Origin: a virus
Lineage: Duplodnaviria > Heunggongvirae > Uroviricota > Caudoviricetes
Virus record (IMG/VR): IMGVR_UViG_2541047728_000018
Direction: 5' to 3' (one strand)
DNA length: 11,200 bases
How positions within the stretch are numbered: the stretch's first letter is position 1; every line of letters begins with the position of its first letter. Positions 2,835-10,462 of the stretch are shown here, piece after piece. Below the pieces are notes generated by a model. The model was given only the letters and a program-made list of their open reading frames with translations. It was not told the origin of the DNA and searched no databases. Position numbers and translations under genes: made by a program.

Positions 2835-3291
2835 AAACCGCTTGCAAAAAATTATCACGGGGCTGTATGCTTCCCCCGTCGCCCACATGGCGACCGGGTT
2901 TAGCAGCCTGAATACATCTGGCGGACAGCCGCCCACATCCGATAAGCGGTTTTTTTGTGTCCGTAAACCTACCCATACCCGCATTATGGCGGGGCGTAAC
3001 GGGGGAGCCTTTGTGCTCGCTGGTTTCCAGATGACCAGTCTGCTAACCCTGTTACGTCTCGCCACCATGTTTAGCAGCGTAGTAGCGAGACTCCTTAAAA
3101 TTCATCTGGGAGCCTTTCACATGGCTGTATTCGCACGCCCTTATTTTGTCTGGCGCTTTATGCAGTGCCTGACAGACAGTATTGCAATATTCACCGTTAC
3201 CGCTGCCACTGAGCGCGAAGCACGTGCACAGCTGCCGCACGCACATCTTATTTTTGTCGCCCGTATTCGCCAGGGGGGGAGTCATGCATAA
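2827..3291 (+). CDS. Protein (154 aa) whose C-terminal ~56 aa are paralogous to the preceding small ORF; alternative internal start at 3121
   Basis: Start overlaps the upstream stop in ATGCGTAA (2827-2834). C-terminus FVWRFMQCLTDSIAIFTVTAATEREARAQLPHAHLIFVARIRQGGSHA. ATG at 3121 has a GGGAG SD and would give a 56-aa paralog instead. Confidence 0.35.
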   Translation: MRKNRLQKIITGLYASPVAHMATGFSSLNTSGGQPPTSDKRFFCVRKPTHTRIMAGRNGGAFVLAGFQMTSLLTLLRLATMFSSVVARLLKIHLGAFHMAVFARPYFVWRFMQCLTDSIAIFTVTAATEREARAQLPHAHLIFVARIRQGGSHA

Positions 3292-3511
3292 AATACCCTT
3301 TGATGTTCTTGTTCATTCTGAAAACGCATTAATCCGCGCAAAGGAAATGGACGCATTACTACTTAAGTTAATTGATGTGCCGGAAAGTGGCGATGAATCT
3401 GATTCAATGATGTTTTCTGCCGTGCGTACGCTATTAACGCCTGTTATTAATGAATTAAATACAGTGATGGCAATTCACGAGAATAATAAAGCGCAGCACA
3501 CCGGAGAATAA
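3284..3511 (+). CDS. Hypothetical protein (75 aa)
   Basis: ATG 3284 overlaps the upstream stop in ATGCATAA (same coupling geometry as at 2827); SD GGGGGAG upstream. Acidic, helical-looking sequence. Confidence 0.5.
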   Translation: MHKIPFDVLVHSENALIRAKEMDALLLKLIDVPESGDESDSMMFSAVRTLLTPVINELNTVMAIHENNKAQHTGE

Positions 3512-3516
3512 AAAAC

Positions 3517-3816
3517 ATGAAAAATAAAAATTCTGGCGTTACTGCCAGCGGCCCCGCTCGTCCTGAATTTATGAACGGCGATATTTACCGCGATAAATAT
3601 GGCGGCATGGTAACGATTAAAGGCGTGGCAGAACGGCGCATCACCTACCGTCGTGAAGGCTACGAATATGATTGCGTGATGCCTGTTTATCAGTTTGATC
3701 GTGATTTTTCTCTGGTGCAGGCAGCGCCCCGTAGTGTGCCCACCAGCAGGGAGAAAGCACGCGCCAATATTCAGGAAATAAAAAAGATGCTTAACGTATT
3801 CAGGGGTAAAAAATGA
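3517..3816 (+). CDS. Hypothetical protein (99 aa), translationally coupled to the primase
   Basis: SD GGAGAA upstream; its stop overlaps the primase start in ATGA (3813-3816). Confidence 0.55.
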   Translation: MKNKNSGVTASGPARPEFMNGDIYRDKYGGMVTIKGVAERRITYRREGYEYDCVMPVYQFDRDFSLVQAAPRSVPTSREKARANIQEIKKMLNVFRGKK

Positions 3817-5561
3817 AACTGGCACCGAACGTAAAAAAACAGCCACGCGGAATAAAACACAAAGACACAGAGGTAATTATTTTCGCGGGTAGTGATGCCT
3901 GGTCGCACGCGAAACAATGGCAGGAGCAGGATGGCCCCGCATCCGGCGATAATGTGCCGCCTGTGTGGCTTGGGCCAAATCAGCTTGCCGAACTTGATGC
4001 ACTGAAAATTGTTCCGGATGGAAAAAAACGCGTAAGGCTGTACCAGGCCGGAGAACTGGATTTGGTGGAGACCAAAAAGATTGGTCAGAAGCTGGCGGCG
4101 GCAGATATTCAGGACGCAAATTTTTACCCCGAAGGAATGCACGTCCAGAAGTGTGAAAACTGGCGGCGCTATCTGAATGCTGAGCGTGAAAATATTGCCG
4201 CAGGGCTTACCATGCCGGAGCAGAAAAATACGCAACTGGCACAAATGGCAGACAGTGAGCGCGCGCAGCTGCTTGCCGAGCGCTTTGATGGCGTTTGTGT
4301 GCATCCTGAAAGTGAAATCGTTCACGTATGGCGCGGCGGGGTATGGTGTCCGGTCAGCACAATGGAGCTGAGCCGCGAAATGGTGGCGATCTATTCAGAG
4401 CACAGGGCCACTTTCAGCAAGCGCGTAATCAATAACGCCGTGGAAGCGTTAAAAGTTATTGCCGAACCAATGGGCGAGCCGTCCGGCTATTTGCTGCCGT
4501 TCGCCAATGGTGCGCTTGACCTGAAAACGGGGGAATTTTCCCCGCACACGCCGGAGAACTGGATCACCACGCACAACGGCATTGAGTACACGCCACCAGC
4601 ACCCGGGGAGAACATCCGCGATAACGCGCCAAACTTTCATAAATGGCTTGAGCACGCAGCCGGAAAAGACCCGAGCAAGATGATGCGTATATGTGCCGCG
4701 CTGTACATGATTATGGCGAACCGGTACGACTGGCAGATGTTTATTGAGGCCACCGGAGACGGCGGGAGCGGTAAAAGTACATTCACACACATAGCCAGCC
4801 TTCTGGCAGGGAAACAGAACACGGTAAGCGCTGAAATGACATCGCTTGATGATGCTGGTGGACGTGCGCAGGTTGTCGGGAGTCGTCTTATCGTCCTGGC
4901 TGACCAGCCGAAATATACAGGCGAAGGAACGGGCATCAAGAAAATCACAGGCGGCGACCCCGTGGAAGTTAACCCGAAATATGAAAAGCGTTTCACGGCG
5001 GTAATCAGGGCGGTGGTGCTGGCGACCAACAACAACCCGATGATATTCACCGAACGGGCCGGAGGTGTGGCACGTCGTCGCGTGATTTTCCGTTTCGACA
5101 ATATCGTCAGTGAGGCCGAAAAAGACAGGGAGCTACCGGAAAAGATCGCGGCTGAAATCCCTGTCATTATCCGCCGATTGCTGGCGAACTTTACCGACCC
5201 TGAGAAGGCACGGGCTTTACTACTGGAACAGCGTGACGGTGATGAAGCTCTGGCAATAAAGCAACAGACGGATCCGGTTATTGAGTTTTGCCAGTTCCTG
5301 AATTTTCTGGAGGAAGCACGCGGCCTGATGATGGGCGGCGGTGGCGATTCAGTGAAGTACACGACCAGAAACAGCCTTTACCGCGTCTATCTGGCGTTTA
5401 TGGCGTACGCAGGCAGGAGCAAACCGCTAAACGTAAATGACTTTGGCAAGGCTATGAAGCCAGCCGCGAAAGTTTACGGACATGAATATATTACGCGGAA
5501 AGTTAAGGGAGTAACGCAGACTAACGCAATAACAACAGACGAGTGCGACGCGTTTTTATAA
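3813..5561 (+). CDS. Phage/plasmid primase-helicase, P4 alpha-like (D5_N / primase C-terminal type)
   Basis: 582-aa ORF with Walker A motif GDGGSGKST; overall layout of P4-family primase/helicase C-terminal region; placed between alpA and an iteron origin as in P4-like and PICI replicons. Confidence 0.85.
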   Translation: MKLAPNVKKQPRGIKHKDTEVIIFAGSDAWSHAKQWQEQDGPASGDNVPPVWLGPNQLAELDALKIVPDGKKRVRLYQAGELDLVETKKIGQKLAAADIQDANFYPEGMHVQKCENWRRYLNAERENIAAGLTMPEQKNTQLAQMADSERAQLLAERFDGVCVHPESEIVHVWRGGVWCPVSTMELSREMVAIYSEHRATFSKRVINNAVEALKVIAEPMGEPSGYLLPFANGALDLKTGEFSPHTPENWITTHNGIEYTPPAPGENIRDNAPNFHKWLEHAAGKDPSKMMRICAALYMIMANRYDWQMFIEATGDGGSGKSTFTHIASLLAGKQNTVSAEMTSLDDAGGRAQVVGSRLIVLADQPKYTGEGTGIKKITGGDPVEVNPKYEKRFTAVIRAVVLATNNNPMIFTERAGGVARRRVIFRFDNIVSEAEKDRELPEKIAAEIPVIIRRLLANFTDPEKARALLLEQRDGDEALAIKQQTDPVIEFCQFLNFLEEARGLMMGGGGDSVKYTTRNSLYRVYLAFMAYAGRSKPLNVNDFGKAMKPAAKVYGHEYITRKVKGVTQTNAITTDECDAFL

Positions 5562-5576
5562 TTTTTTGTAATTGCT

Positions 5577-5800
5577 GTCTACCCTGTCTACCTGAGTAAA
5601 GAAAAATACATTTAATTCAGTGCATTAAGTTAGGTAGATAGCTTTTTTTTACTGTCTACCCACTATCTACCCTCTCTACCTGATTTTACCTGAATCAGAC
5701 AGGGAGGTAGATACGGGGTAGATAGTGGATAAAAGCACTCTACCCCGCTGAAAGCCGCGCCATTACTGGCATGAGGGCCACTAAGGTAGATAAGGTAGAC
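5577..5800. repeat. Iteron-type replication origin (about 11 copies of GGTAGAT(A) / (G)TCTACC in both orientations) with a DnaA-box-like site
   Basis: + orientation copies (xTCTACC) at 5577, 5586, 5654, 5665, 5674, 5738; inverted copies (GGTAGAx) at 5633, 5706, 5717, 5785, 5794. AGTGGATAA (8/9 match to DnaA box TGTGGATAA) at about 5724-5732. AT-rich spacer at 5596-5650. Lies immediately downstream of the primase gene. Confidence 0.6.
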
Positions 5801-5849: not shown

Positions 5850-6128
5850 ATGCACACTTCAGGGAAATTTAATAAATCACTCAAAAAACGCAGAGACAGA
5901 ACAGAACCGAAATATCGCGCGTTAGATATGACAGAGCACGCTTTAAAGGTGGCAATCAGAACGATAGACCGCCACGCGGGGGAAGGATACGCGAAAGCAC
6001 ATCCCGAACTGATAAGCGCATTCATGACCACGACGGCGGCAAACTTTGCCACGCTGACAGAACGGGAGATTGCCGAAGCGGAACAGGTAACAACCATCAA
6101 CGTTAAAACCGGAGAGGTGGAATCATGA
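5850..6128 (+). CDS. Hypothetical protein (92 aa)
   Basis: SD GAGGGGG upstream; its stop overlaps the ssb start (ATGA at 6125-6128). Confidence 0.5.
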   Translation: MHTSGKFNKSLKKRRDRTEPKYRALDMTEHALKVAIRTIDRHAGEGYAKAHPELISAFMTTTAANFATLTEREIAEAEQVTTINVKTGEVES

Positions 6129-6547
6129 CAGCACAGATAGCAGCTTACGGGCGGCTGGTGGACGACCCGCAGGTAAAACAGACCAGCAAGGGCACACCGA
6201 TGACGCTGGCGCGTATGGCGGTCCCCCTTCCGTGCAGCCAGGCAGATGACGGAACGGCGACGATGTGGTTATCCGTCCTGGCATTTGGCAGACAGGCCGA
6301 AGCACTGGAAAGGCACCGCAAGGGTGAACTCCTGAGCGTGGCGGGTAACATGCAGATCAGCCAGTGGACTGGGCAGAACGGAGAAACGCGGCAGGGCTGG
6401 CAGGTTATCGCAGACAGTGTAATCAGTGCGCGAACGGCGCGACTGGGCGGCAAAAAAGGTCAACAGGGCCAGGCTACTGACGCGCTGAACAGGGCAAAAC
6501 AACAGGCGGGGAATGATGATCCGTACGGGGATAACATACCGTTTTAA
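6125..6547 (+). CDS. ssb: Single-stranded DNA-binding protein (SSB) homolog
   Basis: 140 aa. OB-fold core alignable from memory to E. coli SSB (IAAYGRLVDDPQV..., WLSVLAFGRQAEALERHRKGELLSVAGNMQISQWT...), glycine/glutamine-rich linker, and C-terminal acidic tip ending DDPYGDNIPF (compare the DDDIPF tail of SSB). Confidence 0.75.
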   Translation: MTAQIAAYGRLVDDPQVKQTSKGTPMTLARMAVPLPCSQADDGTATMWLSVLAFGRQAEALERHRKGELLSVAGNMQISQWTGQNGETRQGWQVIADSVISARTARLGGKKGQQGQATDALNRAKQQAGNDDPYGDNIPF

Positions 6548-6563
6548 GCGACGAGTGACAGAA

Positions 6564-6585
6564 GCCGGAGCAATCCGGCTTTTTT
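6564..6585 (+). terminator. Rho-independent terminator after ssb
   Basis: Stem GCCGGA / TCCGGC with GCAA loop, followed by TTTTTT. Confidence 0.65.
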
Positions 6586-6587
6586 AC

Positions 6588-6760
6588 GGGTCCTCCTGGC
6601 GGGGTGGGCCTGAACACGGGGCGGGAGGCGCGGAAAAAAGCGCATTTTTGTGATTTTATCGTCATCATCATCATGAGCGTAATTTATTGTTTTTAATTGT
6701 TTTGATGCAAAAAAGATGATGGTTGTGGTTAATTTTTGTTCGACATCTTTGCAGGCAGAT
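6588..6760 (+). other. Degenerate cos-like site (cosQ-like GGGTCCTCCTGGC, altered cosN, satellite-type cosB-like tract)
   Basis: Paralogous to 9030-9130. cosQ-like box at 6588-6600; cosN-like ACGGGGCGGGAGGCGCGG at 6616-6633 (2-nt deletion plus substitutions relative to the intact copy); downstream GGTTGTGGTTAATTTTTGTTCGACATCTTT resembles GGTGGTGGTTTTGTTGTTTGCTCTATCTTT at 9109-9138. Confidence 0.4.
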
Positions 6761-6766
6761 AAAAAA

Positions 6767-6804
6767 GCCCGATAAGGTCAGAGGTGGCTTATCGGGCTTT
6801 TGCA
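6767..6804. terminator. Strong hairpin (11-bp stem) flanked by an A run and T-rich tail; bidirectional terminator-like
   Basis: AGCCCGATAAG (6767-6777) / CTTATCGGGCT (6789-6799), 11-nt loop, preceded by AAAAAA and followed by TTTGC. Confidence 0.3.
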
Positions 6805-6877
6805 TATGAGGCTTTTTGGTGCACTGACACACATGATCGGGATCATCATTTCATAATTTGCAACACAACTCAATATC

Positions 6878-6927
6878 ATTGCACAAAATGCAATCATGAT
6901 TATAATCAGAGCTGGATGAACATCCAG
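6878..6927 (+). promoter_or_regulatory. Candidate regulated promoter of the capsid operon
   Basis: Perfect -10 TATAAT at 6901-6906 with a weak -35 (TTGCAC at 6879-6884); inverted repeat ATTGCA-N5-TGCAAT at 6878-6894 over the -35 region; perfect palindrome CTGGATG-AA-CATCCAG at 6912-6927 just downstream of the -10. Confidence 0.35.
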
Positions 6928-6962
6928 TTATGATTTTTTAAGTCGAAGAGGAATTTCTTACT

Positions 6963-7169
6963 ATGGCTGAAGAGAAAAAAGGCGGTGTTTCGGTGTACAT
7001 AAGCCCCGAAATCGTGGAGGTGCTCAAGCAGCGCCACAAAAAAAACTATGAGGCTGGCGTGGCGGCTGGACTGGATCCGCTGATGACGCCGGAGCCGTCG
7101 ATAGGTTCACTTGTACGCTCTTATTTACTTGCGGCGCTTGGGATGCATAAAAATTATGGGGGTGAATAA
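6963..7169 (+). CDS. Hypothetical protein (68 aa), first gene of the head module
   Basis: ORF whose stop (TAA 7167-7169) overlaps the capsid gene ATG (7169-7171); purine-rich SD upstream. Confidence 0.45.
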   Translation: MAEEKKGGVSVYISPEIVEVLKQRHKKNYEAGVAAGLDPLMTPEPSIGSLVRSYLLAALGMHKNYGGE

Positions 7170-8224
7170 TGGCAGGCAAAGCAACGGCACTTAACACTAA
7201 CCAGCTTTTCATGTACCTGAATCGCGGGGATATTGCGGATTTTAAATTCAGCCCTCTGTTTACCACGCTGTTTTTCCCGAACGTGGCGACATTCAGCACG
7301 CAAAACATCATGCTGGATACCCTGGACATTGAAGAAGTCACCATGTCGGCGTTTTGTTCGCCTATGGTGGGTAGCCAGGTTCAGCGCGATAAAGGGTACG
7401 AAACCAGCACAATCAAACCTGGCTACATGAAGCCAAAGCACGAAATCGATCCAACGAAAACCATCATGCGCATGGCTGGAGAAGATCCGGCACAGCTTAA
7501 CGACCCTACCTATCGCCGTATGCGCCTGATTACTGGCAACATGCGCCGCCAGATAAACGCCATTAAGGCACGCGTGGAATGGCTGGCGGTGAATGCGGTA
7601 ACGACCGGAAAAAACATCATTGAGGGCGAAGGCATAGAACGCTATGAAATCGACTGGAAAATACCGGAAAACTGCATCATAGAGCAGGCCAAGGGTAAAA
7701 AATGGTCCGAGCAGGATAAAGACATGCACGACCCAATCTATGACATCGAGCTTTATGCTGATCAGGCTGGTTGCCCCGCAAACGTCATGATTATGGGCGC
7801 TGAGGTATGGCGAACGTTACGCAGCTTTAAAAAATTCCGTGAGCTGTACGATCTTTCCCGTGGTTCAGAGTCCGCCGCAGAGCTGGCCTGTAAAAACCTG
7901 GGCGAAGTGGTGAGCTTTAAAGGCTATCTGGGCGATATTGCCCTTATCGTCTATTCCGGCAAATACACTGACAGCGACGGCACAGAAAAATATTTCCTTG
8001 AGCCTGATTTGCTGGTTCTGGGCAGCACCAACAATAAAGGGCTGGTGGCCTATGGTGCGATTATGGATCAGGACGCAGTAAGAACGGGCGCAACGCAAAA
8101 CATGTTTTACCCGAAAAACTGGATTGAGGACGGCGATCCGGCGATTGAGTACGTGCAGACGCACAGCGCACCGCAGCCGGTTCCGGCAGATATTCGCAAA
8201 TTTGTTACCGTCAAAATTGGTTAA
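7169..8224 (+). CDS. Major capsid protein, lambda gpE family
   Basis: 351 aa. Collinear similarity to lambda gpE recalled from memory: KFSPLFTTLFFPN vs KFDPLFLRLFFRE; PGYMKPKHEIDP vs PGYVKPKHEVNP; DPTYRRMRLITGNMR vs DPAYRRRRIIMQNMR; YPKNWIEDGDPAIEYVQTHSAP vs YPKNWVTTGDPAREFTMIQSAP. Good SD GGGGGTGA. Confidence 0.85.
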   Translation: MAGKATALNTNQLFMYLNRGDIADFKFSPLFTTLFFPNVATFSTQNIMLDTLDIEEVTMSAFCSPMVGSQVQRDKGYETSTIKPGYMKPKHEIDPTKTIMRMAGEDPAQLNDPTYRRMRLITGNMRRQINAIKARVEWLAVNAVTTGKNIIEGEGIERYEIDWKIPENCIIEQAKGKKWSEQDKDMHDPIYDIELYADQAGCPANVMIMGAEVWRTLRSFKKFRELYDLSRGSESAAELACKNLGEVVSFKGYLGDIALIVYSGKYTDSDGTEKYFLEPDLLVLGSTNNKGLVAYGAIMDQDAVRTGATQNMFYPKNWIEDGDPAIEYVQTHSAPQPVPADIRKFVTVKIG

Positions 8225-8235
8225 CGGGGGATTCT

Positions 8236-8571
8236 ATGGACACTCCATACATTGAGTTATTTGCAGGCAGTCAGCAGGTCGCCACGACGCTGGTACATTT
8301 TGCCGCTGATGCTGGCGTTATTCAGGAATTTACCCCGCTGATGCTGGCGGACAATGGCGAGTTTAAGCCGTGGGATGGTAAGGAATCTGGCAAGGCTGTT
8401 TATCTGACCTCGTACCCTGTGGACACGTCAAAGCAGAAATCAGCACAGTGTTACAAGACGGGGATATTCAATATTGCCGCCGTTAACTGGCCTGAGAGCG
8501 TCGACACCGATGCGAAAAAATGCGCCGCCTTTGCGGGTTCTGGCGTATCCGTTCAGCCGCTGGCCCGATAA
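8236..8571 (+). CDS. Head decoration protein, lambda gpD-like
   Basis: 111 aa. TPLMLADNGEFKPWDG vs gpD TPLMLDTSSRKLVAWDG; YKTGIFNIAAVNWPESVDTDAKKCAAFAGSGVSVQ vs [43 protein letters not shown]. Confidence 0.75.
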   Translation: MDTPYIELFAGSQQVATTLVHFAADAGVIQEFTPLMLADNGEFKPWDGKESGKAVYLTSYPVDTSKQKSAQCYKTGIFNIAAVNWPESVDTDAKKCAAFAGSGVSVQPLAR

Positions 8572-8583
8572 GCAGGGGGAACG

Positions 8584-8997
8584 ATGGCAACGAATGAAAG
8601 CATCATGACGCTACCGCTGGCGAGTAAATTTAAAGCCGAAGCGCGGGCAATGGCTGACAGAGGTTTATCAACCTATGAGGCCGTATATCAACTAAACAAA
8701 CTGGAAGAGCAGGACAAGCCGCGCGCTGATGCGATTATGGCGCTTGATGAATCTGGCGACTATCAGCCGCTGTTACGTGCAATGGCAAACGTGCCTTGTA
8801 TCGATGTTGGTACGGCTAAAAGCATCCTTAGCATGACCATAGAGCAGGAACGTCCGAAGGTTGCGCCGGAACTTACTGCAGCCTTTGAAAACTTTATGGA
8901 CATGCACAGCCCGCAAGCCGTATCAGCTGGCATGGCATACGATGGCAGAAACCAGGGCGATGACGGCGACATCGATCGCATACTGAAAACCATCTGA
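8584..8997 (+). CDS. Hypothetical protein (137 aa) in the head module
   Basis: Good SD AGGGGGA, tight spacing after the decoration gene, followed by a terminator. No recognisable family. Confidence 0.5.
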   Translation: MATNESIMTLPLASKFKAEARAMADRGLSTYEAVYQLNKLEEQDKPRADAIMALDESGDYQPLLRAMANVPCIDVGTAKSILSMTIEQERPKVAPELTAAFENFMDMHSPQAVSAGMAYDGRNQGDDGDIDRILKTI

Positions 8998-9003
8998 GAC
9001 AAG

Positions 9004-9027
9004 GCCGGAGAAATCCGGCTTTTTTTT
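9004..9027 (+). terminator. Rho-independent terminator closing the head module
   Basis: Stem GCCGGA / TCCGGC with GAAA loop, followed by 8 T. Confidence 0.65.
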
Positions 9028-9029
9028 AT

Positions 9030-9138
9030 GGGTCCTTTCCGGCATATGGACCCGTTACGGGGCGGCGACCTCGCGGTTTTTCGCTATTTATGAGCTTTTT
9101 CAGGGGGGTGGTGGTGGTTTTGTTGTTTGCTCTATCTT
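9030..9138 (+). other. cos site (cosQ-like, lambda-identical cosN, non-lambda cosB) upstream of the Nu1-like gene
   Basis: GGGTCCTTTCCGG (9030-9042) matches the lambda right-end cosQ-proximal sequence; CGTTACGGGGCGGCGACCTCGCGG carries the lambda 12-nt cohesive end GGGCGGCGACCT (9060-9071). Downstream sequence diverges from lambda cosB (no CGTTTCC-type R sites). Confidence 0.7.
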
Positions 9139-9165
9139 TATGAATGAAAAGGGAAAGATGCAAAC

Positions 9166-9203
9166 AATACACCAACCTGAAGCAGTAATTAAGTTGGTGT
9201 ATT
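9166..9203. promoter_or_regulatory. Perfect 11-bp inverted repeat AATACACCAAC / GTTGGTGTATT just upstream of the Nu1-like start codon
   Basis: Arms at 9166-9176 and 9193-9203 with 16-nt spacer; the right arm ends 2 nt before the ATG at 9205. Could be a cosB-type binding site or an RBS-occluding stem-loop. Confidence 0.3.
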
Positions 9204-9204
9204 A

Positions 9205-9747
9205 ATGAAATCGCACCTGATGAACAAAAAAAACATGGCGAAAAGCTGCCGTGTAAGTGCGACAGCGTTCGACAAGTGGGGAGTGACTCCCGTTGAACGT
9301 AAAGGCCGTGAGGCGTTTTACGATGTTGCCAGCGTGATAGACAATAGGGTTAACAATGCAATTAGCCAGCTTACAAACGACAAAGGCGATATTGATGATG
9401 ATGAACTCTTACGAGTCAGGATCAGATTACTGACAGCACAGGCGGAGGCGCAGGAACTTAAAAACGAGCGCGATCGCGGTGACGTGATTGATACTGAGTT
9501 TTGCCTGTACGCGCTTTCAAAGCTGGCGAGTCAGATTTCATCAATCATGGACAGCCTCCCGCTTACTATGCAAAGGAGCTTCCCACAGATTACCCCCGCC
9601 ATGCTGGATAGGCTTAAAAGGGAAGTGGTTAAAGCCTGTAATGCCAGTGCCAGAGTTGCCGACAACCTCCCACAGATACTGGCTGATTACTTGAAAGAAA
9701 CAACCGGAAACGTACCGGAAAAGTTGCTACAGAAGAAAGGCGAGTAA
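9205..9747 (+). CDS. Terminase small subunit, lambda Nu1-like (possible packaging-redirection TerS)
   Basis: 180 aa. LLTAQAEAQELKNERDRGDVIDTEFCLYALSKLASQISSIMDSLPLTMQRSFPQI vs lambda Nu1 LTRAQADAQELKNARDSAEVVETAFCTFVLSRIAGEIASILDGLPLSVQRRFPEL; N-terminal wHTH region (NKKNMAKSC...FYDVASVI) is related but diverged. Alternative starts at 9220 or 9235; SD is weak. Confidence 0.8.
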   Translation: MKSHLMNKKNMAKSCRVSATAFDKWGVTPVERKGREAFYDVASVIDNRVNNAISQLTNDKGDIDDDELLRVRIRLLTAQAEAQELKNERDRGDVIDTEFCLYALSKLASQISSIMDSLPLTMQRSFPQITPAMLDRLKREVVKACNASARVADNLPQILADYLKETTGNVPEKLLQKKGE

Positions 9748-9775
9748 CAGACGCGCAATTATTGAACAAAACTGA

Positions 9776-9969
9776 GAAACGACATGAAAGCGTCATAAAT
9801 CGCCATTTTAGATGATTACCGTGTCGTTTCTTTTTATTGTGTATCTATTTAAAAACAAATAGTTATGTTCGAGAAGTACCGACATGCTTTTTCCAGAAAA
9901 ATTTTCATAAACAGATAAAAACCGCGAGGTCGCCGCCCCGTAACGGGTCCATAATTCCAGGAAGGACCC
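9776..9969 (-). other. Complete lambda-type cos (cosQ, cosN, cosB with R-site-like repeats) in inverted orientation
   Basis: 9917-9952 is the exact reverse complement of 9046-9081. Read on the minus strand, the flank resembles lambda cosB: TTTATGAAAATTTTTCTGG; AAAAGAAACGACACGG; CATGTCGTTTCTCAGTTTTGTTC (compare lambda TTTATGAAAATTTTCCGG; AAAGGAAACGACAGGTG; CTGTCGTTTCCTTTCTCTGTTTTTGTCC). cosQ-like GGGTCCTTCCTGG is the complement of 9957-9969. Confidence 0.65.
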
Positions 9970-10003
9970 GACGACACCAGACAATCAGAACGATGGGTGC
10001 ACA

Positions 10004-10285
10004 ATGACAGAAGCCGAAATACTGGGATTAATCCGCCGTGCTGGTGGAATCAGCCAGCAGACTGACGAACAGGCCACGCAGCCGGACAGCGTGACAGCCG
10101 AAAATTATGCGCGTGTTGTTGCTGAGGTGATGCGCCGTGATGGTATCCAGCTTAATGATGTGGATATGCGCAACATACGGATCCGCGTTCTTGAAATGCT
10201 GGCCTACAATCGCCGCGTGGCACTGTATCGGGAAACGGAGAAAATTACATACCACTGGAAGAAGCCGGAGCGGTTGCGGCGGTAA
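10004..10285 (+). CDS. Hypothetical protein (93 aa)
   Basis: ORF with weak SD, immediately outside the inverted cos; Arg-rich C-terminus. No recognisable family. Confidence 0.4.
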   Translation: MTEAEILGLIRRAGGISQQTDEQATQPDSVTAENYARVVAEVMRRDGIQLNDVDMRNIRIRVLEMLAYNRRVALYRETEKITYHWKKPERLRR

Positions 10286-10462
10286 CTGGTTGATATTTTC
10301 GAAATTCGCCAGCGGCGAACATCGGGGAAACCAGCCTAACCCGTTGATATTTTCGGGAACCTCAAATTGAGGAGGTCGGAAACATAACCCGTCATATTCT
10401 GGATGCTGATAATTACCACGCAGCCCATTAAGGCCTAACCCGTTGATTCTTTCGGAAACAGC
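10281..10462. repeat. About four imperfect tandem repeats (period about 48-54 bp) with core TAACCCGTTGATATTTTCGG and recurring CGGAAAC
   Basis: GTTGATATTTTCG at 10289-10301 and 10343-10355; TAACCC at 10337, 10385, 10436; variant cores TAACCCGTCATATTCTGG and TAACCCGTTGATTCTTTCGG. Confidence 0.5.

Follow-up and report, generated by a model that had tools for sequence, protein, structure and literature searches.

The closest described relatives of the element studied here are the cos-type phage-inducible chromosomal islands (PICIs) found in Gram-negative bacteria, phage satellites of which EcCICFT073 (NC_004431, 1377930-1388654) is the prototype. EcCICFT073 has a pair of cos sites, cos1 and cos2 (Fillol-Salom et al., 2018, ISME J, PMC6092414; 2019, Mol Cell, PMC6739421; Murialdo & Feiss, 2022, PMC9026076), which flank the rppA gene in inverted orientation (PMC6092414). 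This cos-rpp layout and the unequal roles of the two sites are already known (PMC6092414; PMC6739421), as is the presence of capsid-gene homologues in most Gram-negative PICIs (PMC10111431). Packaging specificity is set by how cosB interacts with the small terminase (TerS), as established for lambda, 21 and N15 (Feiss and colleagues, PMC4669245) and also for Rpp with cos1 (PMC9026076). We analysed a stretch of 11,200 nucleotides of viral DNA (IMG/VR record IMGVR_UViG_2541047728_000018, hereafter the window), which corresponds gene for gene to EcCICFT073, and in particular the cos-type sequences around its capsid genes. A preliminary description of this DNA had placed two cos-type elements in direct orientation on either side of the capsid genes, which is confirmed, and had taken the upstream one for a degenerate, probably uncleavable copy of the downstream one. 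Our results point to an island that probably carries three complete lambda-family cos sites, each with a different cosB, and not one good site and one decayed one.

We assign the window to the EcCICFT073 family of cos-type PICIs, as an IHE3034-type member, because the arm of a published IHE3034 primer equals window 9776-9818 exactly and IHE3034 is among the near-identical genome matches. The window and EcCICFT073 share the gene order int, alpA-type helix-turn-helix (HTH) gene, icd-like, DUF4222, D5-type primase, SSB, 68-aa open reading frame (ORF), gpE, gpD, 137-aa ORF, specificity gene and 93-aa ORF (ORF93), and window 6761-9101 is 95% identical to its counterpart. In both islands, a site with lambda-like cosQ and cosN and a non-phage cosB stands beside the specificity gene (cos1, and cos-B in the window), and a second cos lies inverted on the far side of this gene (cos2, and cos-C in the window). 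They differ in that EcCICFT073 has RppA where the window has a full-length Nu1-like TerS, in that the cosB of cos1 is unlike that of cos-B, and in that EcCICFT073 has 7 nt where the window has cos-A, a third site of another phage lineage. With terminator hairpins named term1, term2 and term1', the window reads term1, cos-A, term2, capsid genes, term1', cos-B, TerS, inverted cos-C and ORF93, and EcCICFT073 reads term1, 7 nt, term2, capsid genes, term1', cos1, rppA, inverted cos2 and ORF93.

The upstream site, cos-A (6588-6750, plus strand), shares 88-91% identity, along some 170 bp, with the cos region of extant Stx1/Stx2 phages and of O157 prophages. Its cosQ, GGGTCCT (6588..6594, plus strand), lies 31 nt upstream of the predicted nick, a distance that is 30 nt in lambda and in cos-B and likewise 31 nt in cos-C; this heptamer is invariant in the 5 phage and 5 island copies that were aligned. 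Its cosN, ACG|GGGCGGGAGGCG|CG (6616..6632, plus strand), has a predicted 12-nt cohesive end at 6619-6630. The cosN of lambda is ACG|GGGCGGCGACCT|CG, from which cos-A differs only at cohesive-end positions 7, 8, 9, 10 and 12, and the cosN of Stx2_112808, GGGCGGGCGGCG, shows a single difference from cos-A. The cosQ and cosN hallmarks of the lambda family are found in cos-A: a cosQ about 30 bp before the predicted nick, a GGGCGG left half, a predicted 12-nt stagger and CG flanks. Selection acts on cosQ, the left cosN half and the CG flanks, and cohesive-end positions 7-12 vary among natural phages with no measurable effect on cutting by the large terminase (TerL) of lambda (PMC4669245). The changes of cos-A from lambda all fall in this tolerated region. 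The 2-nt deletion that had been read in the upstream cosN is an alignment artefact: placed in register, the site has a 12-nt interval and the same CG flanks as lambda. The interval from ACG to CGGAAAAA is 12-14 nt in this cos family, and its length in the window equals that in Stx2_112808. With an intact cosQ, left cosN half and CG flanks, and with this identity to the cos of extant phages, the upstream site does not fit the degenerate and probably uncleavable copy that had been described.

The cosB of cos-A (6633..6750, plus strand) is, according to local scores, of the type of lambdoid phages with a DUF1441 small terminase: out of a maximum of 125, it scores 84 with Stx2_112808 and 80 with an EDL933 prophage, against 9-26 with lambda, phi4 and mEp460. 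It is 88-91% identical to the cosB of DUF1441-TerS phages. A search of 50,697 phage records with window 6545-6760 returned eight Stx2-converting phages and VT1-Sakai, 88-91% identical along about 170 bp, and mEp460, mEp213, mEp043 and others, 70-80% identical along shorter stretches; the part of the window homologous to phages is 6581-6750. Searching with the Stx2 cos brought up Fels-1, and cos-A is about 77% identical to the region at the cos position of mEp460. Smith-Waterman comparison of cos-A with the Stx2 cos gives z = 96. In Stx2_112808, VT1-Sakai and other Stx phages and in an EDL933 prophage, the segment that cos-A matches has the lysis genes on one side and the gene of a small terminase of DUF1441 type, not Nu1, on the other, which is the classical cos position in lambdoid phages. 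The likeness to these DUF1441-TerS phages (Stx2_112808, VT1-Sakai/Sp15-type and EDL933 prophages, with mEp460 and Fels-1 more distant) extends over cosQ, cosN and cosB with the same cosQ-cosN spacing; the difference is that in the phages the TerS gene follows within about 70 bp of cos, whereas the window has a terminator and lambda-type capsid genes and no DUF1441 gene. The linear record of mEp460_4F5 (LR595868), which differs from mEp460 by 3 nt, begins within the core, at a point 5 nt upstream of the nick position equivalent to that of lambda, a suggestive pointer to where the cohesive end may lie. A P2/186-type cos had been considered for the upstream core GGCGGGAGGCGCGGAAAAAAGCGC and was dropped after the full-length matches to lambdoid Stx/mEp460-type cos. 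As a side observation, a RefSeq "hypothetical protein" on the minus strand spans the phage site of the cos-A type in the EDL933 prophage (L015, 3434-3706), and the window has similar minus-strand ORFs over cos-A (6474-6674 and 6671-6832); these ORFs across cos-A-type sites are probably spurious gene calls.

In the alignment of 5 phage and 5 island copies, the island copies keep most of the phage-invariant blocks, which are GGGTCCTCCTGG, CACGGGGCGGG, TTTTATCGTCATCATCATCATG, TTGTTTTTAAT, AAAAAGATGATG and TTTTTGTTCGACATCTTT. Across island and phage copies, the cosB blocks TTTTATCGTCATCATCATCATG, TTGTTTTTAAT and AAAAAGATGATG are mostly unchanged and the remaining two nearly so; the copy of island L019 has changes in CACGGGGCGGG and TTTTATCGTCATCATCATCATG, and that of L006 has one change in TTTTTGTTCGACATCTTT. 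The island copies share substitutions of their own in the AT-rich spacer of cosB, and their changes are mostly found there and in the right cosN half. This distribution suggests that cos-A is maintained within the islands and is not decaying.

The downstream site, cos-B (9030..9204, plus strand), is the counterpart of cos1, with its cosQ at 9030-9036, a predicted cohesive end GGGCGGCGACCT at 9060-9071 and a GT-rich cosB at 9105-9204. It matches the published cos1 through cosQ, cosN and I2, and phages match it only over this part (9023-9104). Its GT-rich cosB has no phage match and matches the equivalent site in islands L008 and L011; this cosB type is common only to islands encoding a Nu1-like TerS, and cos-B lies directly upstream of the island's own TerS gene. 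R-like inverted repeats are found in it at 9113-9130/9160-9177 and 9166-9176/9193-9203. A third site, absent from the preliminary description, is seen as an inverted stretch at 9898-9953, of which the 56 nt are 89% complementary to 9045-9100. This site, cos-C (9970-9775, minus strand), is the inverted counterpart of cos2, with its cosQ at 9969-9963 and a predicted cohesive end at 9938-9927. Its cosB is of phage type, with R3-, R2- and R1-like elements at 9886-9875, 9840-9822 and 9786-9775, and phages match it across cosQ, cosN and cosB (74% identity with lambda, 84% with PhiR5_1). The cosB scores are 50 against CFT073 phi4 and 38 against lambda; the TerS of prophage phi4 is of the 21 type (PMC9026076). 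All three sites of the window resemble lambda in the cosQ heptamer, in CG|GGGCGG followed by a 12-nt interval and CG, and in the spacing of about 30 nt between cosQ and nick; they differ from it in that the cosB of cos-A and that of cos-B are unrelated to the lambda cosB, the lambda/21-like R elements being found only in cos-C.

How similar the two direct sites are was assessed by global alignment of segments, with 500 dinucleotide-preserving shuffles. The terminator hairpins (6564-6585 and 9004-9025) are identical at 21/22 positions, a score reached by none of the 500 shuffles, and the cosQ-cosN segments (6586-6640 and 9026-9080) share 34 identical positions in 60 columns, as high a score being reached by one shuffle. 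The tracts that had been called cosB-like (6641-6760 and 9081-9200) are identical at 66 of 131 positions, and 223/500 shuffles score as high, which is the chance level. Of the similarity proposed for 6564-6760 and 9004-9140, that of the hairpin and the cosQ-cosN core is retained, and that of the cosB tracts, which are unrelated, fails; the similarity does extend past the hairpin, to the cosQ and left cosN half that are shared by all lambda-family cos. The Smith-Waterman z between cos-A and cos-B is 12, mostly owing to the hairpin, and under this stringent local scoring neither the lambda cos (z = 2.2) nor the third, inverted site (z = 1.8) is significantly similar to cos-A. A likeness along the full length, beyond the motifs common to the family, is not found. 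As read from these alignments, the apparent direct repeat is a duplicated 22-nt terminator hairpin together with the core, conserved throughout the family, of two distinct cos sites.

The hairpins themselves have distinct places in the island. term1 (6564..6585, plus strand; GCCGGAGCAATCCGGC followed by T6; -15.4 kcal/mol, z = -4) follows the SSB gene as part of the island backbone, and is present in EcCICFT073, L007, L009 and L010 with or without a following cos. term1' (9004..9025, plus strand; about -15.4 kcal/mol) is the terminator of the capsid operon. A consensus terminator scan flagged the hairpin at 9001-9022 and not that at 6564-6585; folding gives them equal stability. term2, a strong bidirectional hairpin formed by an inverted repeat (6756..6808; -25.6 kcal/mol), marks the left edge of the capsid/packaging block, and in EcCICFT073 it comes only 7 nt after term1.

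The preliminary description had also suggested that the head module is a cassette gained or lost at the cos-derived repeats. The comparison of islands with and without the capsid module places the boundaries elsewhere. In EcCICFT073, only window ~6586-6758 is missing, the stretch of cos-A. Island L007, which reads term1, cos-A, about 50 nt and ORF93, lacks about 6751-9985, that is the capsid genes, TerS and both lambda-type cos sites, so that cos-A is its sole cos. To judge by these boundaries, the units gained or lost are cos-A alone (about 170 bp) or the whole capsid-plus-packaging block, and not the interval between the repeats. A chimeric query joining SSB/term1 to cos-B/TerS, as recombination between the repeats would produce, was found in 0/5,426 complete E. 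coli genomes. In the same genomes, the SSB-term1-cos-A-term2 junction is found in 168, cos-A directly upstream of ORF93 in 138, and the EcCICFT073-type junction in 32; many O157:H7 islands likewise lack cos-A. The architecture may nevertheless have a cos-associated origin in the deeper past.

Several cos sites with different cosB types are also the rule in the relatives. A related layout is found in all seven other related islands in which cos sites were mapped, and six of the seven have differing cosB types, L007 having its single cos. L006 has the window layout. L019 has cos-A and a lambda-type pair, with the cos-B/TerS/cos-C segment inverted, and L008, an O157:H7 island, has the lambda-type pair only. 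In L009 and L010, two DUF1441-type cos in direct orientation, of different cosB subtypes, enclose a fused protease-capsid gene of Gifsy-2 type. L011 (7506-7557) has a lambda-type cos (plus strand) and an mEp460-type cos (minus strand) around its TerS gene. Where an island encodes a TerS or Rpp of its own, a non-phage cosB is found in the cos immediately upstream of that gene, and phage-type cosBs in the other cos sites. Some observations can be added on individual islands. The upstream cos of L009 (6505-6565) has a mutated cosQ, AGGTACT, and exemplifies real decay, and L011 illustrates that heterotypic cos pairs also occur in inverted position. In L019, positions 6464-7403 (NZ_AP027156.1) correspond to window 9030-9970 in inverted orientation, with 87.9% identity over 947 nt, which places TerS on the minus strand and the phage-type cos after the capsid terminator. 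Such a flip could arise if terminase cut both inverted cosN, leaving the same 5' overhang at both ends for re-ligation either way; RecA-mediated recombination on the inverted repeat of about 65 bp is an alternative route. The idea that the TerS segment is a frequent switch was rejected, as the capsid/cos-B/TerS junction is in the window orientation in 495/5,426 genomes and flipped in 6.

The reading that we consider most probable is that the three sites serve different terminases. They have in common the cosQ GGGTCCT and the CG-flanked GGGCGG left half of cosN, and differ in cosB, the arm that the small terminase reads. cos-A is of the cos type of DUF1441-type lambdoid phages, among them Stx-converting phages and O157 Sp-type prophages, with mEp460 as a more distant case. 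Once a helper has induced excision and replication, the terminase present would open the concatemer at the cos that it reads: the holoenzyme of a DUF1441-type helper at cos-A, the island TerS with the helper TerL at cos-B, and the holoenzyme of a Nu1/21-type helper at cos-C. Since the cosB-TerS interaction sets packaging specificity, we infer three entry points for three terminase specificities; cleavage, the positions of the cohesive ends, the pairing of cos sites with terminases and a selective benefit are likewise put forward on the strength of sequence comparison. A broader proposal, which is tentative and may well prove wrong, is that portable cos modules of 170-200 bp, differing in cosB and cohesive ends, let an 11-kb satellite use at least two unrelated lambdoid head/terminase lineages (Nu1/gpE, and DUF1441 with Gifsy-2-like fused protease-capsid heads) as well as its own TerS, the modules being shuffled between islands and the TerS segment flipping.

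Several observations weigh against this reading. The L019 copy of cos-A is altered at position 6 of the conserved left half, and cos-A diverges about as the backbone does (93% vs 88% in L007; lower in L019), a rate at which constraint is suggested and unproven. Measured cohesive ends for DUF1441-type phages were not found in the searched literature, where only a "putative" end is given for mEp213. Among the matches listed, 8/11 cos-A-bearing genomes have no second megablast match to the region, and the cognate helper is therefore usually not resident; the extra matches in the other 3/11 give no clear signal of helper co-residence. EcCICFT073 transfers well without cos-A, and deletion of cos2 raised its transfer (PMC6092414), so an additional cos may bring no gain or even a cost. 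Finally, no transfer of the IHE3034 island was seen when the resident prophages were induced with mitomycin C (PMC6092414). As to the cat marker used in IHE3034, the arm of primer IHE3034-adjustchlor-1m (PMC6092414, supplement) is the one that equals window 9776-9818, between the R1-like and R2-like elements of the cosB of cos-C, and a marker inside this cosB may have contributed to the reported non-transfer.

An alternative is that cos-A is intact but a passenger, left over from an L007-like ancestor or from recombination with a DUF1441-type prophage, packaging proceeding via cos-B and cos-C only. We consider this unlikely. In its favour, EcCICFT073 and the O157:H7 island L008 lack cos-A and are otherwise the same, most of the listed carriers show no resident phage with a matching cos, an extra cos can reduce transfer, as the cos2 deletion illustrates, and the L007-type and CFT073-type layouts can be derived from the window type by simple deletions. 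A mere remnant fits less well with the retention of cos-A in 168 genomes in the window context and in 138 in the cos-A/ORF93 context, or with island copies that form a subgroup of their own, keep most phage-invariant blocks and have an intact cosQ in 5/5. Moreover, a cognate terminase would cut a phage-type cos on a replicating concatemer regardless of its purpose.

It appears very improbable that the upstream element is a paralogue of the downstream cos that has decayed and can no longer be cut, the capsid cassette having entered or been duplicated by a cos event at the repeats. The two sites are direct and have the hairpin, cosQ and ACGGGGCGG core in common, and in L009 and L010 a capsid gene likewise lies between direct cos, the upstream cosQ of L009 being mutated. 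Against this stand, however, the unrelated cosB tracts, the much closer similarity of the upstream site to phage cos (z = 96) than to the downstream copy (z = 12), the integrity of all known critical positions, the indels of the relatives, which comprise cos-A alone or 6756-9985 and never the inter-repeat interval, and the lack of the recombinant junction in the genomes searched. In addition, the cohesive ends of cos-A and cos-B differ at 5/12 positions, so end-joining between them is unlikely. Finally, that cos-A is mainly an anti-helper decoy on a high-copy replicon, titrating or misdirecting a DUF1441-type terminase, is scarcely credible, since a functional decoy cos would also package the island and is hardly separable from the use of cos-A for packaging, and no associated inhibitor gene was identified, even though PICIs often interfere with helper packaging (e.g., by Rpp redirecting TerS) and cos-A has a complete phage cosB.

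Besides the three cos sites, the window has the features of a PICI: a terminal integrase, an alpA-type regulator, a primase/replication module, unidirectional genes, a size in the range of about 10-15 kb and a specific att site. The same 11-kb element adjoins tRNA-Pro, in the yejM/yejO interval, in 63 complete E. coli genomes, and the annotation of L006, a near-identical island, places it at tRNA-Pro between yejM and yejO. Gene families were assigned by Pfam and PHROG searches, by which the tyrosine integrase (1-1242), the D5-type primase (3813-5561) and SSB (6125-6547) were identified. All the head and packaging genes are on the plus strand. The capsid operon begins with the 68-aa ORF (6963..7169; phrog_3255, of unknown function), which is kept in L006, L008, L013 and L019, and continues with the major capsid protein of the lambda gpE family (7169..8224; Pfam Phage_cap_E, E = 1.9e-50; phrog_29), counterpart of c1499 of EcCICFT073, and the head decoration protein of the lambda gpD family (8236..8571; Pfam HDPD, E = 2.5e-17; phrog_49), counterpart of c1500. 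The 137-aa protein (8584..8997; phrog_1999 and phrog_53) resembles the C-terminal, Nu3/scaffold-like part of head maturation proteases, matching positions 495-567 of 583 of the phrog_53 protease family (E = 1e-8), and gave no match in a search of solved structures. Capsid, decoration and scaffold proteins may thus all be encoded by the island, without portal or protease.

The small terminase gene (9205..9747; Nu1 family, 180 aa; Pfam Phage_Nu1, E = 2.3e-23) takes the position of rppA in EcCICFT073. Its product is 35% identical to lambda Nu1 and 33% identical to the TerS of CFT073 phi4, and aligns over nearly its full length, including the C-terminal part, which in lambda Nu1 binds the large terminase subunit (PMC9026076); a search of solved structures returned nothing useful. 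The window has no Rpp at this position, since this Nu1-family TerS aligns with lambda Nu1 to the C-terminus, whereas the EcCICFT073 gene at the rppA position has weak HTH hits only. Nor does it have the gene content of a capsid-forming PICI: its head and packaging genes are the gpE-like, gpD-like and Nu3-like genes and TerS only, and neither portal, protease nor TerL was found in the window with the ORF list, Pfam and PHROG. ORF93 (10004-10285; phrog_1561, of unknown function) is conserved in all related islands of which the region was fetched, always directly after the last cos, and in the 138 genomes in which it directly follows cos-A it occupies the slot where the phage carries its DUF1441 TerS. 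ORF93 was considered as an analogue of Rpp or TerS and rejected: by BLASTP it resembles neither DUF1441 TerS nor the EcCICFT073 protein that takes the rppA position, and no solved structure matched.

Other features lie outside the head and packaging region, in which (6400-10100) an Rfam scan found no known RNA family. Rfam detects a full-length C4 antisense RNA (72.7 bits; 2982-3069, plus strand) upstream of the icd-like genes, as in the immunity region of P1/P7, flanked by a 48-nt direct repeat of 77% identity (2796-2843 and 3253-3300). Just downstream of the primase gene, where the iteron-bearing replication origins of PICIs are expected, there are 21-nt direct repeats (5575-5595 and 5663-5683; CTGTCTACCCTGTCTACCTGA; 90% identical) and a 16-nt inverted repeat (within 5657-5731). 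A 27-nt repeat is found three times (GCCTAACCCGTTGATATTTTCGGGAAC; 67-89% identical) at 10280-10459, in the stretch from ORF93 to the right island end; these copies may serve a recombinase as arm sites or form some other array bound by protein.

Two further systems can be compared with the window. The helper-embedded PICI 11capE (PMC10111431) also has a near-verbatim phage cos, in a 258-bp segment 90% identical to the helper prophage, but it has a single cos-position segment and a lambda-type helper, whereas the window has a cos of another lineage beside two lambda-type sites. The cos-type Staphylococcus aureus pathogenicity islands (SaPIbov5, and SaPIbov4 with two putative cos) likewise combine a helper cos with a capsid-protein homologue in a satellite; they are from a Gram-positive host, with HNH-dependent terminases and unrelated sequences, and heterotypic cos are unreported in them. 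In the searched literature we found no third, heterotypic cos from the DUF1441-TerS lambdoid lineage in a PICI, no account of each island cos bearing a different cosB, and none of cos-A as a presence/absence module.

Should cos-A be functional, a small exchangeable DNA module would determine helper range alongside proteins such as Rpp or TerS, and a single island could move with both lambda-type and Stx-type lambdoid phages. The architecture is present in hundreds of complete genomes, including those of sequence type 95 (ST95) and other extraintestinal pathogenic E. coli, and O157:H7 carries related islands of the family. This would bear on the spread of virulence-associated islands upon Stx phage induction, on the design of cos-based delivery vehicles and on a rereading of earlier negative transfer results for TerS-encoding PICIs. 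Natural islands whose cos sites differ in cosB type offer a testable panel.

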